DNA of 39,633 nucleotides from Anaerolineae bacterium (GCA_025929715.1 JAICPS010000001.1:1-39633); one strand, 5' to 3'; shown: positions 13,633 to 34,924, counted from the stretch's first letter. Numbers and translations: made by a program. The notes: generated by a model from the sequence alone, not told the origin.

Positions 13633-13649
13633 ACACAAAAGTAAGCACG

Positions 13650-15780: not shown

Positions 15781-15803
15781 GCCTACTGTCCTGGAGCGAG
15801 TAC

Positions 15804-16562
15804 ATGGATTATTCACCGTCAGAACTGATGATTGTTAGCGCTGCGAGAGCACTCAAGGGCAGTCACGTTGTTTTTGTCGGCGTTGGCTTGCCCAATATCG
15901 CCTGCAACCTGGCGCGCCATAGCCATTCCCCGGATCTGGAGCTCGTCTACGAAAGTGGCGTATTCGGCGCTCGCCCTGCCCGCCTGCCTCTTTCCATTGG
16001 CGATCCAACACTCGTCAGTGGCGCCACTTCTGCCTGCAGCATGGCCGATCTGTTCATGTGCTCTCTTCAAGGTGGTTTGGTAGACGTGGCCCTGCTCGGC
16101 GGTGCGCAGATTGATCGATATGGCAACCTCAATACGACCGTCATCGGTGACTACGCGAAACCAAAGGTGCGTTTGCCCGGTTCTGGCGGCGCGTGTGAGA
16201 TTGCAATCAATGCGAAGTCAACATTCATGATCATGCGTCTGCAAAGACGTGCCTTTGTGGAACGGTTAGATTTCGTTACTAGCCCTGGCCATCTACACGG
16301 TGGCAAGACGCGCGATCCGCACACCTTCCCCGGCAAGGGACCACGCCTCGTAATTACTGACCGGGCGCTGTTCGATTTTGACAACGAATCGCGCGAGATG
16401 ACATTGACTGCGGTCGCTCCGGGCCAATCGGTCGACCAAATAAAGGATGATATCGCCTGGGATCTACGGGTCTCAGTTTCGCTACACGAAATCTCGCCAC
16501 CAAGCGATGAAGAGCTACACCTCATTCGCGTCGAACTCGACCCTAAAGGCCTGTATCGCTGA
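15804..16562 (+). CDS. CoA-transferase, subunit B
   Basis: MDYSPSELMIVSAARAL...VGVGLPN...LVYESGVFG (candidate catalytic Glu in the ESG context)...GGAQIDRYGNLN...GSGGA. I trimmed the track ORF (15750) to ATG 15804, which has GGAG 7 nt upstream. Confidence 0.8.
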   Translation: MDYSPSELMIVSAARALKGSHVVFVGVGLPNIACNLARHSHSPDLELVYESGVFGARPARLPLSIGDPTLVSGATSACSMADLFMCSLQGGLVDVALLGGAQIDRYGNLNTTVIGDYAKPKVRLPGSGGACEIAINAKSTFMIMRLQRRAFVERLDFVTSPGHLHGGKTRDPHTFPGKGPRLVITDRALFDFDNESREMTLTAVAPGQSVDQIKDDIAWDLRVSVSLHEISPPSDEELHLIRVELDPKGLYR

Positions 16563-16594
16563 TTTTTTCCACGACCGCGAATGCAACTTTTCCA

Positions 16595-22950: not shown

Positions 22951-23033
22951 TAGGGCGGGTGGGATTCGAACCCACACGGGGTCACCCCCGGCGGATTTTA
23001 AGTCCGCTGCGTCTACCATTTCGCCACCGCCCC
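22951..23033 (-). tRNA. tRNA-Leu (anticodon UAA), class II with long variable arm
   Basis: Minus-strand read: GGGGCGG-TG-GCGAAATGGTAGACGC-A-GCGGA-CTTAAAA-TCCGC-CGGGGGTGACCCCGTGT-GGGTTCGAATCCC-ACCCGCCCT-A. The anticodon loop CU-UAA-AA and the T-loop TTCGAAT are clear. There is a G1:U72 wobble and no encoded CCA. Confidence 0.9.
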
Positions 23034-23070
23034 AATTGTCACAAATAGCTGCTTACCAAATCACGACGCT

Positions 23071-23100
23071 ATTCTATCACATTCGTGAATAAAACTACAA
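23071..23100 (-). promoter_or_regulatory. Candidate promoter for tRNA-Leu (TTGTAG - 18 nt - TGATAGAAT, extended -10)
   Basis: On the minus strand, TAGAAT at 23076-23071 is preceded by TGA (TGn). A weak -35, TTGTAG, lies at 23100-23095. The -10 ends about 37 nt upstream of the mature tRNA 5' end. Confidence 0.4.
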
Positions 23101-23151
23101 TACCGCTGACCGTAGGCCACATTTCCTAATACGTGATGACATAAAACCTCA

Positions 23152-23180
23152 TTGACTGCCCTCTGGCGCAACGGTATAAT
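23152..23180 (+). promoter_or_regulatory. Near-consensus sigma70-type promoter (TTGACT - 17 nt - TATAAT)
   Basis: TTGACT at 23152-23157 and TATAAT at 23175-23180 with an exact 17-nt spacer. The predicted TSS near 23187 leaves a leader of about 108 nt before the DUF4388 start at 23295. Confidence 0.6.
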
Positions 23181-23199
23181 GCGCTGCCTGAGATACGGT

Positions 23200-23215
23200 T
23201 CGAAACGCGTTTCGA
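23200..23215. promoter_or_regulatory. Perfect 16-bp palindrome TCGAAACG|CGTTTCGA in the leader of the 23.3-33.6 kb cluster
   Basis: Read directly from the sequence. It lies about 13-28 nt downstream of the predicted TSS, a typical operator position. Confidence 0.4.
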
Positions 23216-23294
23216 TGCCACGTGGCTGGGACAGCAGCCAAATCACGAACGAATGGTGCGTACGAATCCGCACCGTTATGCAGGATTCTATGTT

Positions 23295-24134
23295 ATGGCC
23301 CTTAAAGGCAACCTGCGCGATTTTTCCACGACGCAACTGCTAAATTTGATCAATCTGGCGCGAAAAACAGGTACGTTGAGCATTGACGGTCCTCAACCAG
23401 CGCAGTTGTCTTTTCGCGAAGGGAAACTAATTTATGCCTCCCTCGGCAATGGCCAAAATGATCTGGCGCACGTGCTTTTTGAAGCGGGCAAGCTCAATAC
23501 TAAACAATTACAAATAATCCAGAGCCGGGCCGGTCGCACCAGCGACAAACAGTTGGGTCACCTTCTGATTCAGGCCGGCTACGTGACGCAGAGCGATATT
23601 ATCCAGAGTGTGCGGCAGCACGTGCTAGATATTGTTTACAAGCTGTTCACGTGGGCCGACGGGCATTTTCGATTTGATGCCAATCGGCTGCCTGAGCCTG
23701 ACCGAATTACGATTCCCATCGATCTGGAAAGCGTCATCATGGAAGGCAGCCGGCGGCTGAAAGAATGGGAACGCCTGCAGCATGAGCTCCCGAATCTCGA
23801 CGTGGCCCTGCGCTTTACCGAGCGACCAGACGCTCGCTTACGGAACATAAACCTGACCGTTGAGGAATGGCGCGTCGTTTCGTTCGTCAACCCTCGCAAT
23901 AACATCAGCCAGATTGCACGGGCCAATAATCTGAGCGACTTTCAGATTCGCCGGATTGTCTATGGTCTCCTTCAGGCAGGTCTCGTCGAATTTGTCCGCC
24001 AGCAGCGTACAGCGCCGGTGGTAAGCAAGACGAACAGTACGGCGCCGCCAGCGCCAGAACCGGTGGAGCAACAATCGCCGAGCGTAAAGCGCTCAGTCGT
24101 ACATCGTCTGATCGAACGGATTCGGAATCTTTAA
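23295..24134 (+). CDS. DUF4388 (PATAN-like) domain protein with C-terminal winged-helix-like segment
   Basis: N-terminus MALKGNLRDFSTTQLLNLINLARKTGTLSI is the classic DUF4388 opening. The C-terminal LTVEEWRVVSFVNPRNNISQIARANNLSDFQIRRIVYGLLQAGLVEFV looks like a wHTH of the DUF742 type. I chose ATG 23295 (AGGA 9 nt upstream) over ATG 23253. Confidence 0.75.
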   Translation: MALKGNLRDFSTTQLLNLINLARKTGTLSIDGPQPAQLSFREGKLIYASLGNGQNDLAHVLFEAGKLNTKQLQIIQSRAGRTSDKQLGHLLIQAGYVTQSDIIQSVRQHVLDIVYKLFTWADGHFRFDANRLPEPDRITIPIDLESVIMEGSRRLKEWERLQHELPNLDVALRFTERPDARLRNINLTVEEWRVVSFVNPRNNISQIARANNLSDFQIRRIVYGLLQAGLVEFVRQQRTAPVVSKTNSTAPPAPEPVEQQSPSVKRSVVHRLIERIRNL

Positions 24135-24214
24135 GCAATGGCAACAGCGACCTTCGGTTCATGCGAGGCGTTCTGCACTCGCGAGGCTTTCGGCTCTCGT
24201 TACAGGAAACTTTG

Positions 24215-24754
24215 ATGCAAGCAGTCAAAATGGTCGTGACCGGTCCTTTCTCAGCGGGGAAAACGCAATTCATCAGTGCGGTGAGCGAAATCGACGTCGT
24301 GTCCACCGAAAGGCGCATCAGTAGCGCGGCAGAGCAGATAAAGGAAACGACTACCGTCGCCATGGATTTTGGCCGTATTACGGTCGGACCCGACCTGGTC
24401 TTATATTTGTTCGGTACGCCGGGGCAGCGCCGCTTTGACTTCATGTGGGAGATCCTCTCCGAAGGTATGCTCGGCTTCATCGTTATCGTAGACAGCACAC
24501 GCCCCGAAACGTTTCGAGAGGCCAAGCGAATCCTTGAGACCTTTGAAACTTATGCTTCGACGCCGTTCGTCGTCGCCGCCAACAAACAGGATCATTCTGA
24601 TGCCTGGGAGCCAGACGATTTACGCATTATCCTCAGCTTACAAAATGGAGTGAAAGTTCTTCCATGTGTTGCTCTTGATAAAGAGAGCGTCAAGAACGTA
24701 CTGCTCGAACTCCTGTATTCCGTACTGGAGCGGATGGACGAGGAGGATCGTTGA
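24215..24754 (+). CDS. Small Ras-like GTPase, CvnD/MglA-type (COG2229-like ATP/GTP-binding protein)
   Basis: G1 GPFSAGKT, G2 region TTTVAMDFG, G3 FGTPGQRRF and G4 ANKQD. I trimmed the track ORF (24161) to MQAVKMVVTG at 24215, which puts the P-loop at the usual distance from the N-terminus. Confidence 0.8.
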   Translation: MQAVKMVVTGPFSAGKTQFISAVSEIDVVSTERRISSAAEQIKETTTVAMDFGRITVGPDLVLYLFGTPGQRRFDFMWEILSEGMLGFIVIVDSTRPETFREAKRILETFETYASTPFVVAANKQDHSDAWEPDDLRIILSLQNGVKVLPCVALDKESVKNVLLELLYSVLERMDEEDR

Positions 24755-25566
24755 GTTCCATCGTTACCGAGCAGGGAATCCTGCACTACGAGACGATCGG
24801 CCGGGGGCGACCGCTCATTTTACTTCACGGTTGGATAAACTCCTGGGATGTCTGGCGCAAGGCCATGATCGCGCTTGGTAGCAGCGATCGCTTTCGCGTT
24901 TATGCGCTCGATTTTTGGGGCTTCGGTGATTCAGCGAAGGGAAACCAAACGGAACTCAGTCCCTCATTTAGAATCGACAGCTATGTAGAAATGGTGCGCC
25001 AGTTTATGGATACGTTGGGTATACTGGAAGCCCCGATATTTGGCCACTCGATGGGCGGCACCGTGGCCCTAAAGTTTGCGCTGGCCAACGCGGACCGGGT
25101 GCGCAAAGTGGCCGTCGTGGGCTCGCCGATCGTGGGTTCCTCGCTGAATCCCTTTCTCAAGCTCGCCGGTTATGGCTTGATCGCCGACGTTATATGGCGA
25201 TTTCCCATATTGCTCAAGCTCGTAATGCACACGATTCTTGCCGGTGATTCAAAGCAAGTACGAGATATGATTTTTCGTGACGTCAAGCGAACAACGCTCG
25301 AGTCGTTTTTCCGCAGCATCGGCGATTTGCGCGAGACGGATCTTCGCGCGCCTTTGCACGGACTTGAAATGCCAGCGTTGGGCATCTTCGGTGTAAATGA
25401 CAATATCGTTTCCCCGCGTAATGCCGAACTCCTCACTGACTGTGTCACGCACGCACAGGTCGCCTTGATGCATCAATCGCGACACTTCCCCATGAGCGAC
25501 GAACCGGACAAATTTCTTACAGCCATGACCACCTTTTTAGGTGATAATGGCCTGAAAAGAAATTAA
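24751..25566 (+). CDS. Alpha/beta-fold hydrolase (intact Ser-Asp-His triad)
   Basis: LLHGW...ALDFWGFGDS, nucleophile elbow GHSMGG (Ser100, TCG at 25048-25050), Asp in GVNDNIV and His in SRHFPM. The start codon is TTG at 24751, overlapping the GTPase stop (TTGA), with AGGAGGA at 24741-24747. Confidence 0.85.
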   Translation: MSSIVTEQGILHYETIGRGRPLILLHGWINSWDVWRKAMIALGSSDRFRVYALDFWGFGDSAKGNQTELSPSFRIDSYVEMVRQFMDTLGILEAPIFGHSMGGTVALKFALANADRVRKVAVVGSPIVGSSLNPFLKLAGYGLIADVIWRFPILLKLVMHTILAGDSKQVRDMIFRDVKRTTLESFFRSIGDLRETDLRAPLHGLEMPALGIFGVNDNIVSPRNAELLTDCVTHAQVALMHQSRHFPMSDEPDKFLTAMTTFLGDNGLKRN

Positions 25567-25628
25567 CAGCGGGTCCTATTGGGAACGGCGTCCGCCTCCG
25601 TCGAAACTCAACCAGTAACAACCAGATT

Positions 25629-26924
25629 ATGCGCCGAGTAATTCTCCAAGCACAGCGACAGATTCATCCATTCAACGAACCTGCTCGCGATCTCAGAGTG
25701 CAAAACAAACCGCTATGGTTGTGGCAGCGCGACTTGCTTGCGCCATATATCAGCGAAGAAAGAGAGTATCCCAACTGGGAGATCGCGCTGCGCTTTGAAG
25801 CGGACGAGCAGGTAGCGACCCTGGTTCATTGCGACAATCTCTTTTTCAACCAACTTTTCATTGCTGACTTTCTGAACCGAGCGAGAAGCGCAGGTGGTCC
25901 GGTGCGCCTCGCTTTACGCGCCGATGATCCGGCGATTGCCCACCATGTTCAGCCGCTAAGTCTCTCGTTTGTCGAGGAGGGTGACCTGCTATTAGCGGAT
26001 ATGTGGTTTCTACCTCGCGGCGTCGGCCAACGCGAAGATGCGGCGCCATTGGTCATCGCAACCGAATCGCGCGAGCGTGGTTACTACCACGTACCGCCTT
26101 ACATGGCCACGGATTTCGGCGATCTGACCTACCAGTTGCCCCGGAAAGCGTTCATCATCATTGAAAGCTGGGTCCATCTATTTGTCGCCGATATTCTATT
26201 CGGCGTCTTCACACGCGGGGTAAACCAGGAAGATCGAATCAGCGCCGACTGGCGCTACAAAATAAAGATCCTTCTGACGTCGCTCGTTGAGCAGCGACAG
26301 CTTCTTGAGTCTTCCGAGCTGGTGAGAGTTGGCCATAACGTAACAATAGATCCATCGGCGCGAATTCATGGACCGACCGTGATCGGCGATAACGTCACGA
26401 TTGGCGCCGGATCCGTCATCGACAACTGCATTATTGGCAATAATGTAACCGTTTCTCAGGGATGCCAGCTAATGCTGAGCGTCGTTAGCGATGGTTGCTT
26501 CCTCCCGTTCCGCGCCTCGCTCTTTATGACGACCCTCATGGAAAACACCATGGTCGCCCAAAACACCTGTCTCCAGCTTTGCGTAGTCGGTCGCGATACG
26601 TTCATCGGCGCAGGTACCACTTTCACCGACTTTAACATCTTACCGGCTCCCTTGAAGGCCGTGCTAAATGACGAACTTCGCGAAACGAACTTTCTGGTGT
26701 TAGGCGGCTGCGTGGGACACCATTGTCGCCTGAGTTCAGGATTGATCATTCATCCCGCTCGCACAGTCGAGTCAGACGTGGTCCTGCTCGCACGTGAAGA
26801 TCGAAACATTATTAGCCGGAACGTGCCATACGAGGACAGCGACCATTTTCCTTATGCTGAAATGTATCCATATCCACGGCTGTATCCCAGGCGCAACGAG
26901 ACCGAGCAAATGGAAGCGCTATGA
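25629..26924 (+). CDS. Hexapeptide-repeat (left-handed beta-helix) protein with an N-terminal GlmU-like/NTP-transferase-like domain of unknown function
   Basis: Aa 232-385 (nt ~26320-26785) show imperfect hexapeptide periodicity: VGHNVTIDPSARIHGPTVIGDNVTIGAGSVIDNCIIGNNVTVSQGCQL...VVGRDTFIGAGTTF...LGGCVGHHCRLSSGLIIHP. The N-terminal IHPFNEPARDLRVQNKPLWLWQRDLL resembles the opening of 'putative sugar nucleotidyl transferase'/alternative GlmU-like proteins. I see no GxGxR nucleotide motif. Confidence 0.55.
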   Translation: MRRVILQAQRQIHPFNEPARDLRVQNKPLWLWQRDLLAPYISEEREYPNWEIALRFEADEQVATLVHCDNLFFNQLFIADFLNRARSAGGPVRLALRADDPAIAHHVQPLSLSFVEEGDLLLADMWFLPRGVGQREDAAPLVIATESRERGYYHVPPYMATDFGDLTYQLPRKAFIIIESWVHLFVADILFGVFTRGVNQEDRISADWRYKIKILLTSLVEQRQLLESSELVRVGHNVTIDPSARIHGPTVIGDNVTIGAGSVIDNCIIGNNVTVSQGCQLMLSVVSDGCFLPFRASLFMTTLMENTMVAQNTCLQLCVVGRDTFIGAGTTFTDFNILPAPLKAVLNDELRETNFLVLGGCVGHHCRLSSGLIIHPARTVESDVVLLAREDRNIISRNVPYEDSDHFPYAEMYPYPRLYPRRNETEQMEAL

Positions 26925-28051
26925 GCGAGGATAGATTTGCTTTTATTATTCATCCGATAGACGTTCGACGCGATGTAAGCCGCAAATACCCTGCGCTTCG
27001 TCATCTTCCCACGTGGCTGATTGAACTGCTCTCCATCTTTTGCCCACCGTTGTACATCTCAAAGATCAGCGGCGTTCGCTCTAACGCAAACGGGCGCGAA
27101 TTGGAAGGCTGGTTTGTGGCTTGTCCGCTCTCAGCGCGCCTGATGCTGTCGCTGCCGCCAGAGTTCGTTTTTCGCAAGATTATCCAGAGCGGACGGTTGG
27201 CCGAGCGGCTCGGCGCGCGGATTTTAGGGCTTGGCGCATTTACCTCTGTGGTCGGCGACGGTGGTATATCAATCGCTCGCGCTCTGAGTATTCCGGTGAC
27301 AACCGGTAACAGCTATACCGTTGCGATCACAATGCACGCCGTTCGCCATGCTGCGAGACATTTAAAGGTCGATCTCCATGAAGCGACTGTAGCAGTGGTC
27401 GGCGCATCGGGCTCGATAGGGAGCGTCTGTGCCAGTTTGCTTGCCCCCGATGCTAAGCGGTTAATCCTGGTCGGCCGCAACGAGCACGCCTTGCAGCGCG
27501 TTGCGGAGCTATCGCGGCAGGCAGGCGCAGCCGACGTTCAAACAAACACAGAAGTTGCGAGTGTTCGCCAGGCGCAAATTGTAATAAGCGCCACCAACGC
27601 CCTGCAGGCCGTGCTCCGGTCAGAAGATCTACATCCTGGAGCGATCATCTGTGACGTGGCTCGACCGTGCGACGTTGCTCGACAGGTCTCAGAAGACCGG
27701 CCCGATGTTGTGTTTATCGAAGGCGGCGTAGTAGAGGTGCCCGGTGACGTGGACTTTGGTTTTGATTTCGGAGCTCCACCTGGAATGGCTTACGCCTGTA
27801 TGGCCGAGACGATGGCTCTCGCGCTGGAAGGCCGTTATGAGTCCTTTACGCTGGGCAAAAGGCTTGAACCGGCGCAGGTCGCCGCGATTGATAAGATTGC
27901 CGCGCGACACGGGTTCAAGTTAGGTGGTCTCCGTAACCTCCAACAGACTGTATCAGGATCAGAATTTGCTGCCGGTGCAGCGGGCGCGTCCCCTGGCCGT
28001 CAGCATGAGAAGGTCGCCGTCGGCGCTGCCGATTACATCTTAGAATCTTGA
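26921..28051 (+). CDS. Homolog of cyanobacterial long-chain acyl-[ACP] reductase (AAR family), NAD(P)-binding
   Basis: Block-by-block resemblance to S. elongatus AAR as I remember it, written ours/AAR: FAFIIHP/FGLIGH, LGLGAFTSV/ALGGFTSI, TTGNSYTVA/TTGNTHTAY, ATVAVVGASGSIGS/ATVAVVGATGDIGS, IEGGVVE/LNGGVVE, YACMAETMAL/FACFAEAML (Cys293 here, TGT at 27797-27799), RHGFKL/RHGFQPL. The start ATG overlaps the upstream stop (ATGA). Confidence 0.75.
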   Translation: MSEDRFAFIIHPIDVRRDVSRKYPALRHLPTWLIELLSIFCPPLYISKISGVRSNANGRELEGWFVACPLSARLMLSLPPEFVFRKIIQSGRLAERLGARILGLGAFTSVVGDGGISIARALSIPVTTGNSYTVAITMHAVRHAARHLKVDLHEATVAVVGASGSIGSVCASLLAPDAKRLILVGRNEHALQRVAELSRQAGAADVQTNTEVASVRQAQIVISATNALQAVLRSEDLHPGAIICDVARPCDVARQVSEDRPDVVFIEGGVVEVPGDVDFGFDFGAPPGMAYACMAETMALALEGRYESFTLGKRLEPAQVAAIDKIAARHGFKLGGLRNLQQTVSGSEFAAGAAGASPGRQHEKVAVGAADYILES

Positions 28052-28063
28052 GGAAGAGATCTC

Positions 28064-28963
28064 ATGAGCAGTGGTAGAATCTTAGTGGTCGAAGACGATT
28101 TCGATATCTCTAACATGCTGCGCATTTATTTTACGGGACAGGGATACCAGGTCGAAGTCGCCGCTCGTGGCGGCGACGCGTTGGCGATGTGTCGCCGTAA
28201 GCTGCCAGATCTGATCGTACTAGATATTATGTTGCCGGATATGGATGGCTATTCAGTATGCCGTGAATTGCGAATGGCGACACGCACAAGCCACATTCCG
28301 GTAATCTTTTTAACCCAGAAAGACGAGCGTAGCGACAAGATAGCCGGGTTAGAGTTGGGCGCCGACGATTACATTACCAAACCGTTCGACATCGAGGAGC
28401 TCAAACTGCGGGTGCGGAGCGCAATACGTGCGCATCAGCGCCTGAACATGACCGATCCACGCACCGGACTGCCCAGTGGCCGGCTGATAGAAGAACAGTT
28501 GCGCCGCCTAATGCGACGTGATGATTGGACCTTTATTCTTGCGGGGATCGATCACCTGGACATTTTTAATGATGCCTATGGGTTCGTCGCCGGTGATGAA
28601 GTACTTCGCTTCGCAGCGCTGCTCTTTGGCGACGTCCTGGACCACACCGGCACTGAGAACGACTTTCTCGGCCATGCGAGCAGCGCAACCTTTACTATCA
28701 TCACGTATAGCCCGGACGTGGGCGCGCTCGTTTCTCAAATGCGCCGGCGATTTCAAGAAGAAGTGCGTCCGCATTATAACTTTATGGACTCTGAGCGCGG
28801 TAGTGTGGCGCTCCACGATGGCGCCATCGGACCACTCATGACCCTTAGCGTGGGTGTTGTCTCCGGTCGCACGGACAGTTTTGCCGACATTCGCGAAATC
28901 ACAGAGACCGCCGCCGAACGGCGGCGTGCGGAGAGAGAGCCACGGGTCCAGGTCGGACAATGA
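28064..28963 (+). CDS. Response regulator: receiver domain plus degenerate GGDEF domain
   Basis: The receiver is intact: EDD at aa 10-12, phospho-acceptor D54 in LIVLDIMLPDMDG, and K106 in TKPF. GGDEF-fold landmarks are DPRTGLPSGR and GIDHLDIFNDAYGFVAGDEVL. The signature motif reads GHASSATF (aa 203-210, nt 28670-28693) where RxGGDEF is expected. Confidence 0.85.
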   Translation: MSSGRILVVEDDFDISNMLRIYFTGQGYQVEVAARGGDALAMCRRKLPDLIVLDIMLPDMDGYSVCRELRMATRTSHIPVIFLTQKDERSDKIAGLELGADDYITKPFDIEELKLRVRSAIRAHQRLNMTDPRTGLPSGRLIEEQLRRLMRRDDWTFILAGIDHLDIFNDAYGFVAGDEVLRFAALLFGDVLDHTGTENDFLGHASSATFTIITYSPDVGALVSQMRRRFQEEVRPHYNFMDSERGSVALHDGAIGPLMTLSVGVVSGRTDSFADIREITETAAERRRAEREPRVQVGQ

Positions 28964-28987
28964 GCGCCAGCGCCGGAAAGACAGAAT

Positions 28988-31900
28988 ATGTTGCAGAAAG
29001 AACAGCCTCCGGCAGTTGCCCAATTAGAGGCGCTATCCAGGGTAAGTAACCGCCTGGGAGCCACCCTTTTGCTGGACGAAATTTTGAATCTGGTACTGTT
29101 GGAAGCAGTGCAGAACTCTAATGCATCGTGCGGCGAAATCTTGCTCCTCGACGAGAACCAGGGCATTGATGCGACGTACACATTCCCAGGTCCGGCGCCG
29201 GCGACACCACGCCTTAATGAGCAGGTCATAGAGCGGAAGTCAGCTCACGTTTACGCCGTTGCTTCACTGTTGGAGCCAGCACAGGCTAGAGAGCAGCTGC
29301 ACTTCGCGCTCATTGCACCGGTACTTTTCGAGAGTCGCGTCTCTGGACTGATCCGCCTCATCAGCGCCGATCCCAACGGCTTTGCCGACACGGATCTTAC
29401 ATTCGTGTCGGCGCTCACAGATCTTACAGCGCTAGCCGTTGGAAATGCACTGCGCTTCAGCGAATTGAGGGAGCGAAACACGCTGTTACAGCGCCGCACA
29501 CAGCAGATCGAGCATTTCCTGGAATCAAGTCGAGTGTTCCATAGCGAACGACGGCTGGAAGAAGTTTACGAAGAGTTGGTGTATGCCATTCAGGAAGGTG
29601 TTGGCTATAACGTTGTCTTACTTAGCCTTGTCGAAAATACTGGCCAGGGAATGAGCTTGCGACGAGTTACGGCAGCCGGACTTCCGATAGAGCGGCTGAA
29701 AGAAATCCAAAAAACGCCACAATCCTGGCAGGAAGTCGAGAAGTTGTTCTCGCCCAATTTTCGCCTGGGAGGCGCCTATTTTATAGCGCGAGGCACTTCC
29801 AGTGCTGAGGGACTCGGGCTTTCCGTGCCTCACGTTGGCGACCTATATCGATCTCCTCTTGCTCCTAATCGAACGCCACTCGAAAAACTGTGGAATGAAG
29901 CGGATCTCTTTTTCATCCCCTTGCGGGATATGCAGGGCAAACCGCAAGGACTTATCAGCCTCGCTTCGCCGATTGATGGGCTTCGCCCCGATTTAAATAC
30001 AGCGCGGGTTCTTGAAGTCTTTGCCAACCAGGCGGCAAGCGCAATCGAGAACGTGCAGTTATTCCACAATATGTGGGATTATGCCTTGCAGCTGCAACAA
30101 CTCCATAACGTCTCACAGCAGACCTTGCGCGAGCGAGATTTTGATCGACAGTTGGAGATCATTCTCGATGGACTACAAATTGCCGGTTGGCAGCGTGTGA
30201 CGCTGACCTTGCGCGACGAAGCCTTCAAAGTTACCAAACTTATTTCGGCCGGCTTATCGACCGCCGAGCACGACGCGCTCGAGCATACGCTCCTGCCGGC
30301 CGCTATCTGGCGGCAGCGGTTCGGCCATGAAACACTCCAGCAATATAGACGTGGTAATTGCTACTTCGTTCCCGACGACGATCCACGGACACGCCCGGCG
30401 GTCGAAGCCGTATTTCCGGCGGCCGCCCAGCCCGAAACTGACGAACGATGGTCTCCCGGCGGAGTGCTGTACCGGCCATTATTCGATCGAGAGCAGCAGT
30501 TAATAGGCCTGCTGGCGCTCGCATCGCCCGACAGCCATCGACATCCTGACGAAAACGGGCTGCAGACGATAGACCTCTACGCACAGTTCGCCATATCCGT
30601 AATCGAAAGCCATCGCATGTTTAGCGAAATGCAACGGCGCAGCCAGGAGCTCCAAGCCCTTTTTGACGCGAGTAAGGCGTTGTCAGGAACGTTGAAGCAG
30701 GATGCCATTCTGACCGCCATGGGGGAGCATATGCTGCAGGCGGTAAGCGCCAGCGCCTATACAGTCTATGCTCTGACGCGGAACAGGCGCGATACCGTGG
30801 TGCTGCGCAGCGAATCAAAGGTGGGCTGGCTAGACGAAGAGCCGGCCGGTACCCAGAGCCAGATCAGGCAGGTGTCGTTAGCCCAAAAGGTAATTGAAAC
30901 AAGGCGGGCCGCTGCACAGGACTTCTCAGCGCCGTCAACTGGCGCGGGCGCCGAGCAAGGTGAACGCTTCTCGCTGGCTATGTTGCCCCTACCCCTTGGT
31001 GACGAGCTTTTTGGCCTGGTAGAGGTCATTGCGACCAACTCACAGTTTAATTGGACTCCAGACAAGCTCCAGCTGCTGGAAGCTATCGCCAATCAGGCCA
31101 GCACGGCCCTGGAGACTGCTCATCTCGTAGAGGAGTTAGATGATCGCGTCGCTCAACGAACCCGCGCACTGGCGGAAGAGGTTGCCCGCGTTCAGTCTAT
31201 CCTTGAAAGTATGGCGGATGGCGTTCTTGTGGCCGAGGCTGACGGAACCATTTTGATGGCAAACATGCCCACGGCGCAATACTTCGACTTACCCCAAGAA
31301 CGATTGGTTGGTCAACCCGTGGAAAAGCTTAAGAGCCCACATGGTAACGGCGCCGATCGTTGGGCCAACACAGTGCGCATGTGGTCAACGCAATCCGCAA
31401 GCCTTCAACCACACGGCGCTGTAAAGGACCAGATAGAAGTCGGCGCCCGGGTGCTAAATGTCCACGTTTCTCCTGTATTTGCCAACGGTCACTTCTTCGG
31501 CACCATCTCTATCTTCCGCGATATCACACGAGAGGCCGAAGTTGACCGCATGAAAAGCGAGTTTGTGTCTACAGTGTCACACGAGCTTCGTACGCCGATG
31601 ACCTCGATCAAGGGTTACACGGATCTTCTGCTCATGGGCGCTGCCGGAGAAGTGCCCGAACCCCAACATCGCTTTCTGGAGGTGATCCGCAAGAATGCGG
31701 ATCGACTGACGGTCCTGGTAGACGATCTTCTGGACATTTCGAGAATTGAGACGGGTAAGACCGATTTGAAACTGCAACCTGTCGACGTATCACGAATCAT
31801 TCAGCACGATATTGGAGAACACGTCAGAGGCCGCATCCAGCACGAAAACAAGGCGCTCAATTTTTCGATTTCTCTGGAACCGCCGCTGCCACCGGTTCAC

Positions 31901-32353
31901 GCCGATCCTGAAAAAGTTACCCGAATCTTGATGAATCTGGTAGACAATGCCATAAACTACACACCAGATGGTGGTACAATCGAGGTGCAGGCTTTCACGT
32001 CCGCTATCACCCACACTTCGGCGCAGAGTGAGAAAGGTTGCGGAGACATGGTTTGTATCCGCGTTCGCGATTCCGGAGTTGGCATCAGCCGCGAAAACAT
32101 CGAGCGTATTTTCGAGCGCTTTTACCGGGTCGAGGGCGGTAATTTTCAGGACGCGCCGGGCACAGGGCTTGGCCTCCCTATCGTACGCAGCCTGGTCGAG
32201 ATGCACGGTGGCGAAATATCGGTAGAAAGTGAACCTGGTGTTGGTAGCACCTTTACGTTTAGCTTGCCCTGTGTCAATGGGGATAAACACGATCTGACCG
32301 AAATATCAAGCGCGTCCTCATACGACGCCAACGCGAGGAAATTGAGAACATGA
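28988..32353 (+). CDS. Cytoplasmic sensor histidine kinase: four GAF-like domains, PAS, HisKA, HATPase_c
   Basis: No TM segment. Four repeats of about 170-190 aa each end in a GAF-like ...A.Q.A.A(I/L)EN..L... helix plus coiled coil, at aa ~10-165, 170-365, 370-560 and 560-730. PAS at ~735-850 (ADGVLVAEADGTILMAN...ISIFRDIT). H-box SHELRTP with His865 at 31580-31582. N box NLVDNAINYT, G1 RDSGVGI, G2 GTGLGL. Confidence 0.9.
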   Translation: MLQKEQPPAVAQLEALSRVSNRLGATLLLDEILNLVLLEAVQNSNASCGEILLLDENQGIDATYTFPGPAPATPRLNEQVIERKSAHVYAVASLLEPAQAREQLHFALIAPVLFESRVSGLIRLISADPNGFADTDLTFVSALTDLTALAVGNALRFSELRERNTLLQRRTQQIEHFLESSRVFHSERRLEEVYEELVYAIQEGVGYNVVLLSLVENTGQGMSLRRVTAAGLPIERLKEIQKTPQSWQEVEKLFSPNFRLGGAYFIARGTSSAEGLGLSVPHVGDLYRSPLAPNRTPLEKLWNEADLFFIPLRDMQGKPQGLISLASPIDGLRPDLNTARVLEVFANQAASAIENVQLFHNMWDYALQLQQLHNVSQQTLRERDFDRQLEIILDGLQIAGWQRVTLTLRDEAFKVTKLISAGLSTAEHDALEHTLLPAAIWRQRFGHETLQQYRRGNCYFVPDDDPRTRPAVEAVFPAAAQPETDERWSPGGVLYRPLFDREQQLIGLLALASPDSHRHPDENGLQTIDLYAQFAISVIESHRMFSEMQRRSQELQALFDASKALSGTLKQDAILTAMGEHMLQAVSASAYTVYALTRNRRDTVVLRSESKVGWLDEEPAGTQSQIRQVSLAQKVIETRRAAAQDFSAPSTGAGAEQGERFSLAMLPLPLGDELFGLVEVIATNSQFNWTPDKLQLLEAIANQASTALETAHLVEELDDRVAQRTRALAEEVARVQSILESMADGVLVAEADGTILMANMPTAQYFDLPQERLVGQPVEKLKSPHGNGADRWANTVRMWSTQSASLQPHGAVKDQIEVGARVLNVHVSPVFANGHFFGTISIFRDITREAEVDRMKSEFVSTVSHELRTPMTSIKGYTDLLLMGAAGEVPEPQHRFLEVIRKNADRLTVLVDDLLDISRIETGKTDLKLQPVDVSRIIQHDIGEHVRGRIQHENKALNFSISLEPPLPPVHADPEKVTRILMNLVDNAINYTPDGGTIEVQAFTSAITHTSAQSEKGCGDMVCIRVRDSGVGISRENIERIFERFYRVEGGNFQDAPGTGLGLPIVRSLVEMHGGEISVESEPGVGSTFTFSLPCVNGDKHDLTEISSASSYDANARKLRT

Positions 32354-32354
32354 C

Positions 32355-32720
32355 ATGGCGAAAATTCTGATAGCTGAAGACGATTTAGATATCCGCGAAC
32401 TGGTTGTGCTGACGCTTCAATTCCATGGACATCAAGTAATCAGCGCGTCTGATGGCGCTCAGGCCGTCGAGAAAGCACAACAGGGCTCGTTTGACCTTAT
32501 CTTGATGGACGTTCGCATGCCGCGTATGACCGGGTATGAAGCGTGCCGTCGACTGCGCGAAAATGACGCGACCAGGGACACGCCAATCATTTTCCTTTCG
32601 GCGAAGGGGCAGGAAGCCGAGATTCAGGCCGGAATGGACGCCGGCGCCACGCAATATATCCTTAAACCATTCGCGCCTGATATCTTGGCCACGAAGATAA
32701 AGGACGTACTAGGCGCCTGA
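32355..32720 (+). CDS. Single-domain response regulator (CheY-like)
   Basis: KILIAEDD...DLILMDVRMPRMTG...PIIFLSAKG...ILKPF. The ATG lies 1 nt after the kinase stop codon. Confidence 0.9.
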   Translation: MAKILIAEDDLDIRELVVLTLQFHGHQVISASDGAQAVEKAQQGSFDLILMDVRMPRMTGYEACRRLRENDATRDTPIIFLSAKGQEAEIQAGMDAGATQYILKPFAPDILATKIKDVLGA

Positions 32721-32773
32721 TTGATGCAGATTCTTTGTCGAGCTATCTCGGCGTATAGTCGAAAGTAAACAAG

Positions 32774-33565
32774 ATGAGCATCACGACGATCGGAAGAAAT
32801 CTGGTCCACTACGAAGCTCTGGGCCGCGGCAAGCCATTGATTTTCATTCATGGCTGGCTTGGTTCGTGGCGCTATTGGTGGCCGTCGATGCAGGCGCTCG
32901 CCACGCATTACCGCACCTTTGCCCTGGACCTTTGGGGATTTGGCGATTCGAGTAAGGTCAGCGAGAAGTACTCGCTGTCGAATTACATGGAAATGCTGGA
33001 CCAGTTCATAGAAGGCCTGGGTATAGCCGTCCCGGTTGTCATCGTCGGACATGGCCTGGGAGCAGGCGTCGCCATTCGATATGCGCTGCAAAATCCAGAG
33101 GACGTGGCACGAATTGCTCTTGTCGGGCTGCCTGTAAGCGGGGCAGCGCTGAATACCCGCCTCGTTCAGGGTGATAACCTGGCTGCTGCCATCCGCGTTA
33201 CAGGTAGAGCAAGAACTTTTCCCGAGATTGAAGTCGAGCTGAGGAAGAGCGATCCCGTCGCCGTTACCGCGCTTATGGACGAAATGCATCGATCCGACTT
33301 TTCGAATGATTTGCAACAGCTCAGCTGTCCGCTGCTGTTGCTTTTTGGCGGGCAAGATCCCCTCATCCAACAACCCAACGGCGAACATGCAGCCATCCGC
33401 GAAACCGCATTCAATCGCGCATACATTTGCTTTGACTCCTGTATGCACTTCCCGATGCTCGAAGAAACCGCGAAGTTCAACCGGTTGGTGCTGGAATTTC
33501 TGCATAGCGATAATGATCTGCGCAGCCTTTCGCCAAAGAACTATTGGAAACGCCGCACGCACTAG
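32774..33565 (+). CDS. Alpha/beta-fold protein, paralog of 24751..25566, with nucleophile Ser replaced by Gly
   Basis: FIHGWLGSW...ALDLWGFGDS aligns along its length with the first hydrolase. The elbow reads GHGLGAG (Gly94, GGC at 33053-33055) in place of GHSMGG. The Asp (GGQDPLI) and His (CMHFPM) contexts are retained. Confidence 0.8.
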   Translation: MSITTIGRNLVHYEALGRGKPLIFIHGWLGSWRYWWPSMQALATHYRTFALDLWGFGDSSKVSEKYSLSNYMEMLDQFIEGLGIAVPVVIVGHGLGAGVAIRYALQNPEDVARIALVGLPVSGAALNTRLVQGDNLAAAIRVTGRARTFPEIEVELRKSDPVAVTALMDEMHRSDFSNDLQQLSCPLLLLFGGQDPLIQQPNGEHAAIRETAFNRAYICFDSCMHFPMLEETAKFNRLVLEFLHSDNDLRSLSPKNYWKRRTH

Positions 33566-33659: not shown

Positions 33660-34886
33660 ATGGTATTGCGCCGTTTATTTGCACGCTTATTTCTTCTTGC
33701 CGGGATACTTATTGTCGGCTGCCAAACTTCTTCTGCTCCAGGTACCGGCTCTTCGTCCTCGACCATGCCGGCATCACAAGCGACCGGCCTGGCGCCCACC
33801 GCGCAACCCACGCTGGTTCCCGGCGCCGCGACGCCAACCGCGGCGCCGCTGGTCAGTACACCAGATACGGCGCCCTCGCCCGTAGGCTCCCCCGTAACGC
33901 AAGCTGAACCGACACAATCCATACCCGGATTAATCGGACCCGACAATTTCGCGCCCAATGTGAACCCACTAACCGGTCTGGTGGTCGACGATCCTGCGCG
34001 CCTGAACCGGCGGCCCGTCGCCATAAAGATTTCGAATTATCCTGCGGTCGTTCGCCCACAATCTGGATTGAATAGCGCAGATCTCATTTTCGAGCATTAC
34101 GCAGAGGGTGGGGTCACCCGGTTCACGGCCGTCTTTTATGGCAACGACGCCAACCCGGTAGGGTCCATACGCAGCGGCCGGCTAATCGACCTGGAGATAC
34201 CAAAGATGTATGACGCCGCGTTTGCTTACTCGGGTTCTAGCGGTCCGGTGCGTCTCATGCTGCGTGACAGTCCATTTTTTGACCGGATCATTTCGCCCGA
34301 TTTTGGTCATGGTGGCTACTTCCGCGTAGAAGATCCCAACAAGGCCTTTGAACATACACTGTTTACCGATACGGGCACTTTGCGCGCCATTCTCGAGGAA
34401 CGAGGCCTAAATACGCCCCCGCAATTTCAGACGAACATAGCCTTCCATCCTCAGCCGCCTGCCGGCGGCGTCCCAGCCAGCTCCATCGAGGTTCGTTACA
34501 TAGGGACCAATGCCTTCTGGCGCTACGATCCGATTACCACCGGCTACGTACGGTCCACAGATGGCGTGGTCCACGTAGACGCTAACACCGGTCAACAGCT
34601 AAACTTTCAGAATATCGTCGTAGTCGCAGCGCACCACGAAGATACGGACATCCTGGAGGATCTTGTCGGAGGCGGTCACTATTCGATTCAAATTCAAACT
34701 TGGGGCGAAGGTCCGGTTTCTATCTTTCGCGATGGACAGCGTTTTGACGGCCGCTGGCGCCGGGAAAACGCCAACGACATGCTCACATTTTATGACCAGG
34801 AAGGGAATATCCTGCCATTGGCGCCGGGCAACAGCTTCTTTCAACTCGTGCCGCTTGGCTTCACCGGATTGGTCGTGACTCAGTAG
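33660..34886 (+). CDS. DUF3048-domain lipoprotein (YerB-like)
   Basis: Signal peptide with lipobox LIVGC, then a PT/A-rich linker. RRPVAIKISNYPAVVRPQSGLNSADLIFEHYAEGGVTRFTAVFY is typical of DUF3048. Confidence 0.8.
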   Translation: MVLRRLFARLFLLAGILIVGCQTSSAPGTGSSSSTMPASQATGLAPTAQPTLVPGAATPTAAPLVSTPDTAPSPVGSPVTQAEPTQSIPGLIGPDNFAPNVNPLTGLVVDDPARLNRRPVAIKISNYPAVVRPQSGLNSADLIFEHYAEGGVTRFTAVFYGNDANPVGSIRSGRLIDLEIPKMYDAAFAYSGSSGPVRLMLRDSPFFDRIISPDFGHGGYFRVEDPNKAFEHTLFTDTGTLRAILEERGLNTPPQFQTNIAFHPQPPAGGVPASSIEVRYIGTNAFWRYDPITTGYVRSTDGVVHVDANTGQQLNFQNIVVVAAHHEDTDILEDLVGGGHYSIQIQTWGEGPVSIFRDGQRFDGRWRRENANDMLTFYDQEGNILPLAPGNSFFQLVPLGFTGLVVTQ

Positions 34887-34893
34887 GAGTCAC
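34875..34893. terminator. Hairpin between convergent genes (DUF3048 gene / IPK gene)
   Basis: GTGACTC-AGTAG-GAGTCAC overlaps the TAG stop at 34884-34886. Only a weak T-rich tail (CTTATTTGT) follows. Confidence 0.3.
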
Positions 34894-34924
34894 GTCACTT
34901 ATTTGTAAGTTCGTAGCGCGGCTA

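Follow-up and report, generated by a model that had tools for sequence, protein, structure and literature searches.

A nine-gene operon behind one promoter

The window, a 39,633-nucleotide stretch of DNA from an Anaerolineae bacterium, carries nine co-directional plus-strand genes (23253-33565) downstream of a TTGACT-17-TATAAT promoter. The title of its first-pass annotation counted ten genes, but only nine were listed and are present; a tenth, encoding a DUF3048 lipoprotein, follows after 94 nt and had been excluded there. Pfam, NCBIfam or PDB searches confirmed all nine assignments. The features are:

23137-23144, plus strand: TGACATAA motif, 8-15 nt 5′ of the -35 hexamer
23152-23180, plus strand: sigma-70-type promoter TTGACT-17-TATAAT, 11/12 match
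23253-24134, plus strand: gene 1, PATAN (DUF4388/PatA_N) protein (PF14332, E 1.3e-29)
24215-24754, plus strand: gene 2, MglA-family small GTPase of the GTPGQ type (Groups 2-5, CvnD-like; ATP_bind_1, Arf and Ras matches)
24751-25566, plus strand: gene 3, ABH1, alpha/beta hydrolase (Abhydrolase_1, E 1.2e-26)
25629-26924, plus strand: gene 4, Hexa, sugar-nucleotidyltransferase-like plus left-handed beta-helix (LbH) protein (AF2, Foldseek, hhalign)
26921-28051, plus strand: gene 5, AAR/PigE-N-type NAD(P)H thioester reductase, accessory (PigE and AAR profile matches)
28064-28963, plus strand: gene 6, response regulator with REC and degenerate GGDEF (GHASS) domains, REC-GGDEF* (Response_reg 6e-30, GGDEF 5e-10)
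28988-32353, plus strand: gene 7, cytoplasmic multi-GAF–PAS–HisKA–HATPase histidine kinase (Pfam)
32355-32720, plus strand: gene 8, single-domain CheY-like receiver (Response_reg 7e-31)
32774-33565, plus strand: gene 9, ABH2, paralogue of ABH1 with motif GHGLGA (31% identical to ABH1, E 6e-42)
33660-34886, plus strand: gene 10, possible member, DUF3048 lipoprotein (DUF3048 N- and C-terminal domains)
34874-34894, plus strand: best-ranked terminator-like hairpin in the region, located where the DUF3048 gene ends

The junction spacings annotated earlier (80, -4, 62, -4, 12, 24, 1 and 53 nt) are all correct, with stop and start codons overlapping at the two negative junctions (TTGA and ATGA). The near-consensus promoter is likewise present, and relatives keep it: TTGAC[TGC]-17-TATAAT matches at 11/12 upstream of the PATAN gene in 84 of 90 related loci, against 0 of 293 random 250-nt windows. 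Over the whole region, promoter-like sites do not exceed the number expected by chance (6 against 7.0), and upstream of genes 2-9 no site scores above 8/12. A related element, TTGACG-17/18-TACAAT, precedes 32 of 50 loci that begin with V4R or Hexa; the promoter accompanies whichever gene stands first, be it PATAN, V4R or Hexa. The leader 3′ of it is unconserved among relatives, and an Rfam search returned no match to it. When upstream regions were anchored on the -35 hexamer, the TGACATAA motif kept a constant offset in close relatives and was absent from more distant clades; it is a possible regulator site or UP-like element.

Terminator-like matches within the cluster are at chance level (12 against 13.3 expected) and all lie inside coding sequence, which leaves standing the earlier view that no convincing intrinsic terminator interrupts it. 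The hairpin at 34874-34894 has an 8-bp stem with five G-C pairs and then a T-rich tail; as a terminator it is suggestive only, the scan total being at chance level.

Upstream, tilS and tRNA-Leu were confirmed. The flanks had been called unrelated housekeeping, and these two identities hold; the unrelatedness of the DUF3048 gene is doubtful, since it is a recurrent neighbour. It lies immediately 3′ on the same strand in 29 of 58 close loci and is divergent, upstream of the PATAN gene, in 8 of 12 loci of other clades. Its product carries a lipobox (LIVGC).

Conserved linkage and two sub-modules

The related loci with which we compared the gene order all come from MAGs or metagenome contigs, and a single order-level group supplies most of the close ones. 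Contig permitting, 80/80 related genomes show the arrangement PATAN–GTPase–hydrolase–(V4R)–Hexa–(AAR-like)–REC-GGDEF*–GAF/PAS kinase–CheY–hydrolase2. PATAN and GTPase genes lie upstream of Hexa in 69/69 evaluable close loci. In 71/71 loci from genomes and 44/46 from metagenomes, REC-GGDEF* comes next after Hexa or after Hexa-AAR; the kinase lies downstream in 57/58 and 29/34, and a hydrolase in 58/58. The invariant linkage is Hexa with the REC–degenerate-GGDEF protein and the GAF kinase, not Hexa with the AAR-like reductase. The conserved neighbourhoods that the first-pass annotation proposed to look for do exist, with genes linked far beyond the window's own clade, and together with the conserved promoter they bear out its self-contained, signalling-rich module.

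The operon also comes apart. The one Anaerolineaceae locus examined holds PATAN–GTPase–hydrolase–V4R–Hexa alone, whereas Chloroflexales-type loci hold (V4R)–Hexa–REC-GGDEF*–kinase–hydrolase alone, with neither PATAN nor GTPase within 10 kb. The two halves are joined again in distant clades (L084, L091, L146-L171). We therefore propose, as part of an overall reading that we give about an even chance, two separable sub-modules hinged on Hexa. Module A would comprise PATAN, the GTPGQ-type MglA-family GTPase, an intact alpha/beta hydrolase, a V4R/TRAPPC3-fold ligand binder and Hexa; module B would comprise Hexa, REC–degenerate-GGDEF, the cytoplasmic multi-GAF/PAS kinase, CheY (in the window's clade) and a second hydrolase-fold protein.

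Gene neighbourhood is linkage, not mechanism, and the arrangement could be inherited synteny of functionally unrelated genes kept together in one lineage. The predominance of one order-level group among the close loci fits this, as do the tilS and DUF3048 flanks, which are syntenic too in about half of them. Yet every evaluable locus (100%) retains the core although the flanking genes differ, and in other orders and a second class the sub-modules reappear with wholly different genes on either side. Stop codons that overlap start codons, and a conserved promoter that always precedes the first gene, also speak against it, so that this explanation is largely refuted and very improbable. The operon is strongly conserved and characteristic of the Chloroflexota classes Anaerolineae and Chloroflexia (filamentous Chloroflexota).

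Signalling proteins, enzymes and probable pseudoenzymes

The PATAN protein contains a helical insert, a possible C-terminal wHTH (MarR_2, weak at E 0.005) and a weakly scoring MshEN-like motif (24.5 bits; cut-off 38). Translation may actually begin at the ATG at 23295, because orthologue alignments open at residue 15. PATAN is an output domain that contacts the type IV pilus motor (bioRxiv 10.1101/2021.06.11.447907); the window contains neither type IV pilus nor motility genes. The longest gene 2 ORF begins at 24161, and orthologues span 177-180 aa. Its P-loop (GPFSAGKT), G3 (FGTPGQRRF, 80/82 orthologues) and NKQD (82/82) read as an intact GTPase of MglA Group 2-5 type, a class marked by GTPGQ and Thr for Arg (PMC4316618). 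T. thermophilus MglA (3t12) is among its PDB matches, and the cluster encodes no MglB/Roadblock partner. PATAN genes adjoin Group 1/5 MglA genes, so the pairing of PATAN with an MglA-type GTPase is already known (PMC4316618). Most relatives add a V4R gene that is missing from the window; the V4R/TRAPPC3 fold accommodates small hydrophobic ligands, palmitate included (PMC10933270).

The gene 6 REC domain conserves its acidic pocket, phospho-Asp and Lys. Its GGDEF domain has neither the GGDEF motif nor an RxxD I-site and is degenerate in every orthologue, with GHAS/T-type motifs replacing GG[DE]EF. Of the kinase's four GAF-like segments, two score significantly and two weakly (about 21 bits), and a search for membrane-spanning segments found none; in orthologues GAF number and length vary widely, up to 3502 aa. 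Active-site motifs of the CheY protein are conserved in 66 orthologues, and the protein is undetected in most Chloroflexales-type loci. Pfam and NCBIfam searches found no DNA-binding domain in either response regulator.

An AF2 model of Hexa (pLDDT 94.2, pTM 0.92) bears out the earlier NTP-transferase-like/hexapeptide call: its best Foldseek matches are ST0452, GMPPA/B, GlmU and eIF2B (E down to 3e-15, probability 1.0), a GlmU/GMPPA/eIF2Bγε fold. In an hhalign comparison with NT-LbH enzymes (prob 99.7%), G9, R13 and K23 are missing. The GxGTR…K nucleotide-binding loop is gone, a two-residue deletion having removed its Gly-rich part, and Phe294 stands where GlmU has its catalytic acetyltransferase His, as read from a profile-profile alignment at 18% identity. 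Hexa is thus a probable double pseudoenzyme and, since both the nucleotide loop and the acetyltransferase His are lost, most likely a non-catalytic ligand-binding scaffold or regulatory hub. A non-canonical active site is conceivable, and the invariant C267, C279, C290, C314, C318, C361, H364, H365 and C366 could serve metal binding or chemistry.

Hexa might instead be a genuine divergent enzyme acting on an envelope component, for example an acyl-/acetyl-transferase or a nucleotide-sugar-binding enzyme; it would then be what the two-component system regulates as its output, with the GTPase module adding further control. Hexa, whose family counts 755 representative clusters, is under very strong purifying selection, with 62-86% identity kept across 80 genomes (80 species) and many invariant Cys/His, and it invariably adjoins a response regulator otherwise lacking an output. 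Among its more distant relatives, L085, L087 and L088 adjoin Rossmann proteins and L090 lies in a metabolic-looking, non-signalling cluster (radical SAM, cupin, cyclase-like, SDR), settings that tell against the signalling reading favoured below; the L090 cluster would suit an enzyme, as would the recurrent exported DUF3048 lipoprotein. Against these points, both domains lack their canonical catalytic residues, no curated NCBIfam enzyme family is matched at cut-off, and consistent linkage to glycosyltransferase or envelope-biosynthesis genes is not seen. We consider this decidedly unlikely.

Gene 5 matches the PigE N-terminal part (E 3.9e-57; 4ppm, 9e-31) and AAR (TIGR04058, E 6e-28; 6jzq, 2e-23), scoring far below the family cut-offs (194 against 850 bits for PigE, 98 against 449.7 for AAR). 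In 59/60 orthologues both the YACMAET motif with the catalytic Cys and the NAD(P)H motif are retained, and the protein is clearly predicted to be catalytic. It is nevertheless dispensable within the operon: present in 54 of 71 evaluable close loci, it was lost several times independently on the Hexa tree and is missing from the Anaerolineaceae locus and all Chloroflexales-type loci.

ABH1 and ABH2 find their best PDB matches in epoxide hydrolases, meta-cleavage-product hydrolases and BioH. ABH1 has GHSMGG in 77/81 and GHSLGG in 4/81 orthologues, with the His kept, and in 97/98 loci the hydrolase encoded ahead of Hexa carries the Ser; the Ser-Asp-His triad of ABH1 is intact, and strict catalytic function is clearly predicted. 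The ABH2 nucleophile is Gly here, with Asp and His retained, so the "nucleophile-less" label is right for the window, but the state is not fixed: orthologues carry S in 26, G in 42, A in 14 and D in 2, a loss of serine in 58/84. These changes are scattered over the Hexa tree, even between near-identical loci; the nucleophile is labile and appears dispensable.

These enzymes bear on the reading behind the first-pass annotation, in which a hydrolase, a hexapeptide acyltransferase and an acyl-ACP reductase make or modify a lipid-derived, aldehyde-type molecule that the kinase, receivers and GTPase sense or report. Consistent with it are the AAR-like protein's catalytic motifs, its homology to reducers of acyl thioesters to aldehydes (PigE reductase activity, PMC8341465), the strictly conserved ABH1 triad and the hydrophobic ligands carried by V4R/TRAPPC3 folds. 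When present, moreover, the AAR-like gene always sits between Hexa and REC-GGDEF*, distant clades included. However, the rest of the operon persists in the 17 of 71 close loci and whole clades that lack this gene, Hexa has neither catalytic signature of its fold, and the window encodes no decarbonylase, aminotransferase or other aldehyde-consuming partner. The acyl/aldehyde set is not the core, and the reading, borne out only in part, is unlikely as a whole; its conserved, signalling-rich module stands, and the active hydrolase, V4R protein and AAR-like enzyme still allow for the involvement of a small hydrophobic ligand.

Our favoured reading, given an even chance, is a single-promoter signalling operon rich in pseudoenzymes, where a small-GTPase switch would converge with a phosphorelay on Hexa and the output would be non-transcriptional. 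Most of the enzyme-like proteins lack catalytic residues, which suggests signalling machinery more than a pathway for making lipids. Against this, ABH1 and the AAR-like protein are clearly predicted to be catalytic, so that the operon would also carry out real small-molecule chemistry; the lack of pilus and motility genes in the window and of an MglB/Roadblock partner in the cluster likewise counts against the reading. The GAF and PAS domains of the kinase would sense ligands in the cytoplasm; the kinase would phosphorylate two receivers, both without DNA-binding output, and REC-GGDEF* would work on or through Hexa by protein contact. The GTPase–PATAN pair would form a second, nucleotide-driven switch docking on the Hexa hub. 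A small hydrophobic ligand, produced, trimmed or bound by ABH1, V4R and, where present, the AAR-like protein, may tune the system, and ABH2 may be a non-hydrolytic binding partner of the kinase, by analogy with RsbQ–PAS. Output would be post-translational, possibly related to envelope, polarity or motility because of known PATAN and MglA roles; a link to the adjacent DUF3048 lipoprotein is also possible.

Comparison with known systems

The whole assembly is apparently undescribed: as the first-pass annotation had supposed, we found no account of such a composition in the literature searched. Like MglA/MglB/RomR and Group 5 MglA modules (Wuichet & Søgaard-Andersen 2015, PMC4316618), the cluster encodes a Ras-like, single-domain GTPase that bears the Group 2-5 signature (GTPGQ in G3, Thr for the Arg finger in G2); its gene lies beside a PATAN gene and is linked to receiver-domain proteins. 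Unlike them, the cluster has no MglB/Roadblock GAP and no motility genes nearby, and the GTPase's partners, a predicted active hydrolase, V4R, Hexa and a GAF kinase, are not known from any described MglA module.

PatA-type (PATAN-REC) regulators of cyanobacterial Tax/Pix systems, where PATAN is a protein-binding output domain, similarly combine it with a CheY-like receiver and a sensor kinase. Here PATAN is unfused to REC, has a wHTH-like C-terminal tail and is paired with a GTPase, and MCP, CheA and CheW genes are absent. The actinobacterial conservon consists of a histidine kinase (CvnA), Roadblock (CvnB), DUF742 (CvnC) and GTPase (CvnD). As in our operon, genes for a histidine kinase and for a GTPase of the MglA-family GTPGQ type stand together in one operon; the best Pfam match of gene 2, ATP_bind_1, is a family that covers CvnD-type GTPases. 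Both lack a DNA-binding response regulator, and a non-transcriptional, G-protein-like output is therefore implied. In contrast to the conservon, CvnB and CvnC homologues are absent, the phylum differs, the kinase is a soluble GAF/PAS HisKA protein with two cognate receivers, and PATAN, the hydrolases, Hexa, V4R and the AAR-like protein have no counterpart there.

A hydrolase with a PAS partner is a known bipartite sensor, RsbQ–RsbP (PMC3183031). Our operon likewise sets an alpha/beta-hydrolase-fold gene beside a PAS signalling gene, here with kinase output, and ligand supply or holding is presumed. ABH1 and ABH2 are not RsbQ orthologues, RsbQ being absent from their best 60 PDB matches. RsbQ signalling requires its catalytic triad, whereas the ABH2 serine appears dispensable. 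Gene 5 is homologous over nearly its full length to cyanobacterial AAR and the PigE N-terminal domain and keeps the catalytic Cys (YACMAET, against FACFAEA in AAR) and a GxGxxG motif; unlike them, it is an optional component with neither an aldehyde-deformylating oxygenase partner nor a fused aminotransferase. Hexa has the two-domain fold of GlmU, ST0452, GMPPB, GMPPA and eIF2Bγ/ε, nucleotidyltransferase-like plus left-handed beta-helix, and its degenerate catalytic motifs recall the non-catalytic GMPPA and eIF2Bγ/ε. It differs from this group in its low identity (about 14%), in reaching no curated family threshold, in a ~17-residue insertion in the beta-helix and in the setting of the Hexa family within signalling operons.

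A nine-gene operon behind a conserved promoter

Nine open reading frames follow one another on the plus strand of the window.

Genes of the operon, in window coordinates
23253-24134, plus strand: g1, PATAN/DUF4388 protein
24215-24754, plus strand: g2, small GTPase
24751-25566, plus strand: g3, hydrolase ABH1
25629-26924, plus strand: g4, hexapeptide protein (Hexa)
26921-28051, plus strand: g5, acyl-ACP-reductase/PigE-N-type protein (AAR-like)
28064-28963, plus strand: g6, receiver with degenerate GGDEF (REC-GGDEF*)
28988-32353, plus strand: g7, GAF/PAS histidine kinase
32355-32720, plus strand: g8, CheY
32774-33565, plus strand: g9, hydrolase ABH2

The first-pass annotation had described ten same-strand genes here; the genes are indeed co-directional, but nine are present. 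Its eight junction spacings, including the TTGA and ATGA overlaps, are all right, and Pfam, NCBIfam and PDB-sequence searches bore out its calls for every domain, with weak scores for the wHTH of g1 (MarR_2, E 0.005) and for two of the four GAF-like segments of the kinase (~21 bits). No membrane segment was found in the kinase. Alignments of PATAN orthologues all begin at residue 15 of g1 (MALKGNL…), so the true start may be the ATG at 23295 rather than 23253, which would give a leader of ~108 nt.

A promoter, TTGACT-17-TATAAT, had been proposed ahead of the cluster, and the site is there (23152-23180, 11/12 matches). The region has as many promoter-like and terminator-like sites as shuffled sequence would give, so a motif scan proves nothing by itself, and it is comparative data that show more than chance. 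TTGAC[TGC]-17-TATAAT (11/12) stands 5' of the PATAN gene in 84 of 90 loci, including clades whose PATAN protein is merely 46–62% identical, and none of 293 random 250-nt windows reached 11/12. Internal promoters were rejected, as nothing above 8/12 lies ahead of any of g2–g9. In loci of the Chloroflexales type, a conserved TTGACG-17/18-TACAAT precedes whichever gene is first (32/50 loci). The motif TGACATAA (23137-23144), 8–15 nt 5' of the -35 hexamer, is kept in close relatives and may be a regulator half-site or an UP-like element. The 5' leader also contains a perfect 16-nt palindrome, TCGAAACGCGTTTCGA (23200-23215), of which one half, GCGTTTCG, is all that the four closest relatives retain; the remaining leader is not conserved. 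A riboswitch or other known RNA in the leader was rejected: only tRNAs pass Rfam thresholds in the window, and a search of 23030-23300 returned nothing meaningful.

Across loci the operon flanks are less stable than the core. The tilS and tRNA-Leu flank was annotated correctly, with tRNA-Leu(taa) and tilS upstream on the opposite strand. The DUF3048 lipoprotein gene (33660-34886), dismissed with them as unrelated, does lie 94 nt 3' of g9, but its dismissal is doubtful because it is a recurrent neighbour. It is same-strand and directly 3' of the operon in 29 of 58 close loci, and divergent, upstream of the PATAN gene, in 8 of 12 loci of other clades. The region's only good terminator-like hairpin (34874-34894) lies at the 3' end of the gene, so the transcript may include DUF3048 as a tenth gene. 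Elsewhere in the window, 9191-10555 and 10619-12013 encode tandem paralogues, Peptidase_C39-like plus TPR proteins. At 12070-17920, co-directional genes for an aldehyde dehydrogenase, a CoA-transferase subunit, a 416-aa ORF lacking any Pfam match, a second CoA-transferase subunit and a class-III aminotransferase resemble a small catabolic operon with no relation to g1–g9.

Conservation and modular arrangement around Hexa

When one genome per GTDB species was scanned with a degenerate pattern, 389 genomes proved to have a Hexa relative, and the best 80, at 62–86% Hexa identity, were analyzed. All but one are Chloroflexota MAGs, with the labels Ardenticatenaceae, Promineifilaceae, Leptovillus, Leptofilum or Anaerolineae; the exception, L079, has the record title 'Patescibacteria group bacterium'. 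Every locus used for comparison lies on a contig of a MAG or a metagenome, drawn from the best 80 hits of each scan. The search for conserved neighbourhoods that the first-pass annotation had proposed showed the gene order of the window to be shared by practically all of these best 80 genomes (tblastn with the window proteins). PATAN and GTPase genes lie upstream of Hexa in 69/69 evaluable loci and a hydrolase in 67/69; REC-GGDEF* comes right after Hexa or Hexa-AAR in 71/71, with the kinase downstream in 57/58 and a hydrolase downstream in 58/58. Presence was scored by tblastn at a coverage of at least 50%, which very divergent copies can escape, as does the V4R gene of locus L082, found by Pfam below the tblastn threshold.

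In most relatives an extra gene separates ABH1 from Hexa. Its ~215-aa product is a V4R-domain protein (PF02830, E 6e-8) of the Zn-Cys4 type, in the TRAPPC3/Bet3 fold family, with a CxxC…C…C motif (for example L008:9330-9986, L012:9334-9984 and L082:9418-9993); the gene is present in 52–53 of the 80 genomes plus many Chloroflexales-type loci. In the window only 62 nt occupy the site (25567-25628), with no tblastn trace of V4R; the window lineage has lost the gene cleanly. Across the 80 genomes, 41 loci have both V4R and AAR-like genes, 19 have AAR-like only (the window type), 12 have V4R only, and 8 have neither. On the Hexa tree, a simple neighbour-joining tree, these combinations represent several independent events; the AAR-like gene is therefore accessory.

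Beyond the closest genomes the operon comes apart into two modules. In an Anaerolineaceae locus (L082) the cluster reads PATAN–GTPase–ABH–V4R–Hexa and stops there. Loci of the Chloroflexaceae/Chloroflexales type (L081, L086 and ~50 metagenome loci) read (V4R)–Hexa–REC-GGDEF*–GAF kinase(s)–ABH, with PATAN and GTPase genes absent within 10 kb. The full set, AAR-like included and often with V4R, reappears in other clades (L084, L091 and L146–L171). In the metagenome set overall, REC-GGDEF* follows Hexa in 44 of 46 evaluable loci. Both modules, A (PATAN through Hexa) and B (Hexa through ABH2), are linked genetically to Hexa. The 80 metagenome loci do not show the LMW phosphatase gene that lies 5' of Hexa in L081 and L086, and it was not counted as a member. 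The operon kinase is hugely expanded in some lineages, with sizes of 2094 and 3502 residues and GAF hits by the dozen (L084:15199-21377, L091:14525-20809); inside the operon, L091 has an inserted Rce1-like membrane protease gene and L084 an inserted 409-aa gene of unknown function.

The Hexa family is small (among 1.84 billion representatives searched, 755 clusters reach E ≤ 1e-3 and 38 reach E ≤ 1e-30), and its distant members (25–31% identity) occur in other gene contexts. In a high-GC lineage (L083:2-5847, L089:4751-11370), a Hexa of ~25% identity ends a conserved Ser/Thr kinase(PEGA)–TPR–Hexa series and is followed by an FHA gene in convergent orientation; here too the family stands in a signalling context. 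Cyanobacterium-like and myxobacterium-like contigs pair the Hexa relative with an adenosylhomocysteinase-like Rossmann protein of ~360 aa, either alongside a divergently transcribed EF-hand protein (L085:9339-12405, L088:26-3083) or with no EF-hand (L087:8889-11302). These Rossmann neighbours were considered as hidden AAR homologues and rejected: they match adenosylhomocysteinase NAD domains, and the one tested, from L088, has no similarity to g5 (BLASTP E 0.32). In L090 a distant Hexa relative sits amid a radical-SAM, cupin and cyclase-like set.

Component proteins and lost catalytic residues

In public annotation Hexa goes under 'multidrug transporter' or 'DapH/DapD/GlmU-related'. A first structure model, built on a shallow alignment (20 sequences, ≥67% identity; pLDDT 53), was discarded; adding representatives at 23–55% identity raised pLDDT from 53 to 94, and the AF2 model from the diverse alignment has a pLDDT of 94.2 and a pTM of 0.92. 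By Foldseek, Hexa shares the NT plus LbH fold with ST0452, GMPPA/GMPPB, GlmU and eIF2B, and hhalign against true NT-LbH enzymes gives a probability of 99.7% (E 1e-26, 353 columns). The Pfam search returned no PF00483 hit. Compared with GlmU-type enzymes in hhalign, a low-identity profile alignment, a two-residue deletion covers G9 of the GxGTR loop, Gln stands opposite R13, and Ala opposite K23. The catalytic His of the acetyltransferase loop (…P-H-L-S-Y-x-G-D…) aligns, with moderate confidence, with the invariant Hexa Phe294 (DGCFLPFR). Given the loss of the GxGTR, Lys and His equivalents, both canonical active sites appear to be inactive, like those of GMPPA and eIF2Bγ/ε. Hexa has many invariant Cys and His residues.

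Two further domains of the operon lose catalytic residues, the GGDEF and the second hydrolase. REC-GGDEF* keeps an intact receiver, and its GGDEF is degenerate in nearly all orthologues: the motif is GHASS in the window and of the GHA[ST] type in most others, not the GG[DE]EF of diguanylate cyclases, and the RxxD I-site is absent, with TEND in its place as read from the sequence. ABH2 had been called nucleophile-less; this is true of the window, which has Gly, and not of the family as a fixed state. The position is Ser in 26 orthologues, Gly in 42, Ala in 14 and Asp in 2 (lost in 58/84), switching even between near-identical loci while Asp and His persist. ABH1 has GHSMGG or GHSLGG in 81/81 orthologues, with His kept, and Ser in 97/98 across all loci.

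In the g2 GTPase the P-loop, GTPGQ and NKQD are invariant, with FGTPGQRRF in the window and 80/82 orthologues. Its G3 is the GTPGQ of MglA Groups 2–5, not TVPGQ or DxxGQ (PMC4316618). The G2 region, placed by eye without alignment to MglA, reads TTTVAMDFG ([STAM]TTVAMDFG in orthologues), with Thr in place of the Arg finger. The helical PATAN insert of g1 (residues 73–121; window 23469-23615) contains two tandem MshEN/GspE_N-like 24-residue motifs, an echo of the reported PATAN–GspE_N association. Binding of c-di-GMP by this insert is doubtful on its sequence: the NCBIfam c-di-GMP_motif scores 24.5 bits against a cut-off of 38, and the leading Arg is missing. With the GGDEF domain also lacking its I-site, c-di-GMP sensing was set aside as a weak lead.

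The AAR-like protein retains YACMAET in 59/60 orthologues, whose Cys we take to be equivalent to AAR Cys294, and an NAD(P)H-binding VGA[ST]G[AS]IG. It is homologous to PDB 6jzq (E 1.6e-23) and scores 98.1 bits against TIGR04058, far below the equivalog cut-off of 449.7. Compared with PigE (NF053554), the 376-aa protein covers model positions 52–350 of 837, scores 194 bits against 850, and lacks the fused C-terminal class-III aminotransferase domain. No ORF in the window encodes an aldehyde-deformylating oxygenase.

A signalling reading and comparison with known systems

Most economically, the cluster is read as a signalling operon with a non-catalytic GlmU-fold hub. Module A would comprise a PATAN–GTPase switch, an active hydrolase and a V4R ligand-binder, and module B the GAF/PAS kinase with two output-less receivers. 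REC-GGDEF* would act on Hexa, the GTPase would dock on it, and the signal would be a hydrophobic ligand. Published precedents support the analogies taken singly. PATAN genes neighbour Group 1/5 MglA genes (PMC4316618), and PATAN is a protein-binding output domain contacting PilB and PilC (bioRxiv 10.1101/2021.06.11.447907). V4R/TRAPPC3 proteins bind small hydrophobic ligands (PMC10933270), AAR-type domains convert thioesters to aldehydes (PMC8341465), and a hydrolase with a PAS domain forms a bipartite sensor (PMC3183031).

A bolder mechanism would make Hexa, as a pseudoenzyme akin to eIF2Bγ/ε and GMPPA, together with the TRAPPC3-fold V4R protein and PATAN, a nucleotide-exchange/GAP platform for the MglA-type GTPase, gated by phosphorylated REC-GGDEF*; we consider this very improbable. 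Eukaryotic GTPase exchange factors use both folds, eIF2B for eIF2 and TRAPP for Rab. If true, the platform would place the two folds together on a small GTPase in a bacterial system and tie two-component phosphorelay directly and mechanistically to G-protein signalling.

Named carriers of the operon include Ca. Promineifilaceae, Ca. Leptovillus, Oscillochloris and Chloroflexus, which are filamentous sludge or mat organisms, so its output may bear on filament behaviour. A link to motility by neighbourhood was rejected, as the window holds no pilus, gliding or other motility genes. An anti-phage defence system was likewise rejected, PADLOC returning generic REC-domain hits only (E about 1e-6).

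Beyond Myxococcus and Streptomyces, prokaryotic Ras-like GTPases have, to our knowledge, hardly been characterised. In MglA Groups 2–5, GAP/GEF partners and catalytic mechanism are still unresolved (PMC4316618). With this operon, one such GTPase gains a set of partners that is defined and widely conserved, and the Hexa family (755 representative clusters) a first functional context. The physical link of this GTPase to a classical phosphorelay turns cross-talk between two-component and G-protein signalling in bacteria into a testable question.

Among known systems, PatA-type regulators differ from g1, a PATAN protein with no Response_reg hit and hence no C-terminal REC. RsbQ–PAS resembles the operon by analogy only, in that a hydrolase gene adjoins a PAS-containing gene; ABH2 lies 3' of the kinase and CheY in the window and directly after the kinase in Chloroflexales-type loci. 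The best 60 PDB matches of either hydrolase do not include RsbQ, and this ranking led us to reject ABH1 and ABH2 as RsbQ/KAI2-type receptors by homology. The operon works like conservons (CvnABCD) and MglA modules, as a non-transcriptional pairing of a GTPase with a phosphorelay. It belongs to neither because Roadblock and DUF742 proteins are absent: it has no CvnB (Roadblock) or CvnC (DUF742) and shares only the kinase-plus-GTPase principle. Robl_LC7 (MglB/Roadblock) was found in none of the nine cluster proteins or the other window ORFs scanned, and a copy could lie elsewhere in the genome. The first-pass annotation knew of no system of such composition, and the literature searched likewise yielded none combining all components. 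The operon is a kind of prokaryotic small-GTPase/two-component signalling operon whose composition is unusual and rich in pseudoenzymes.
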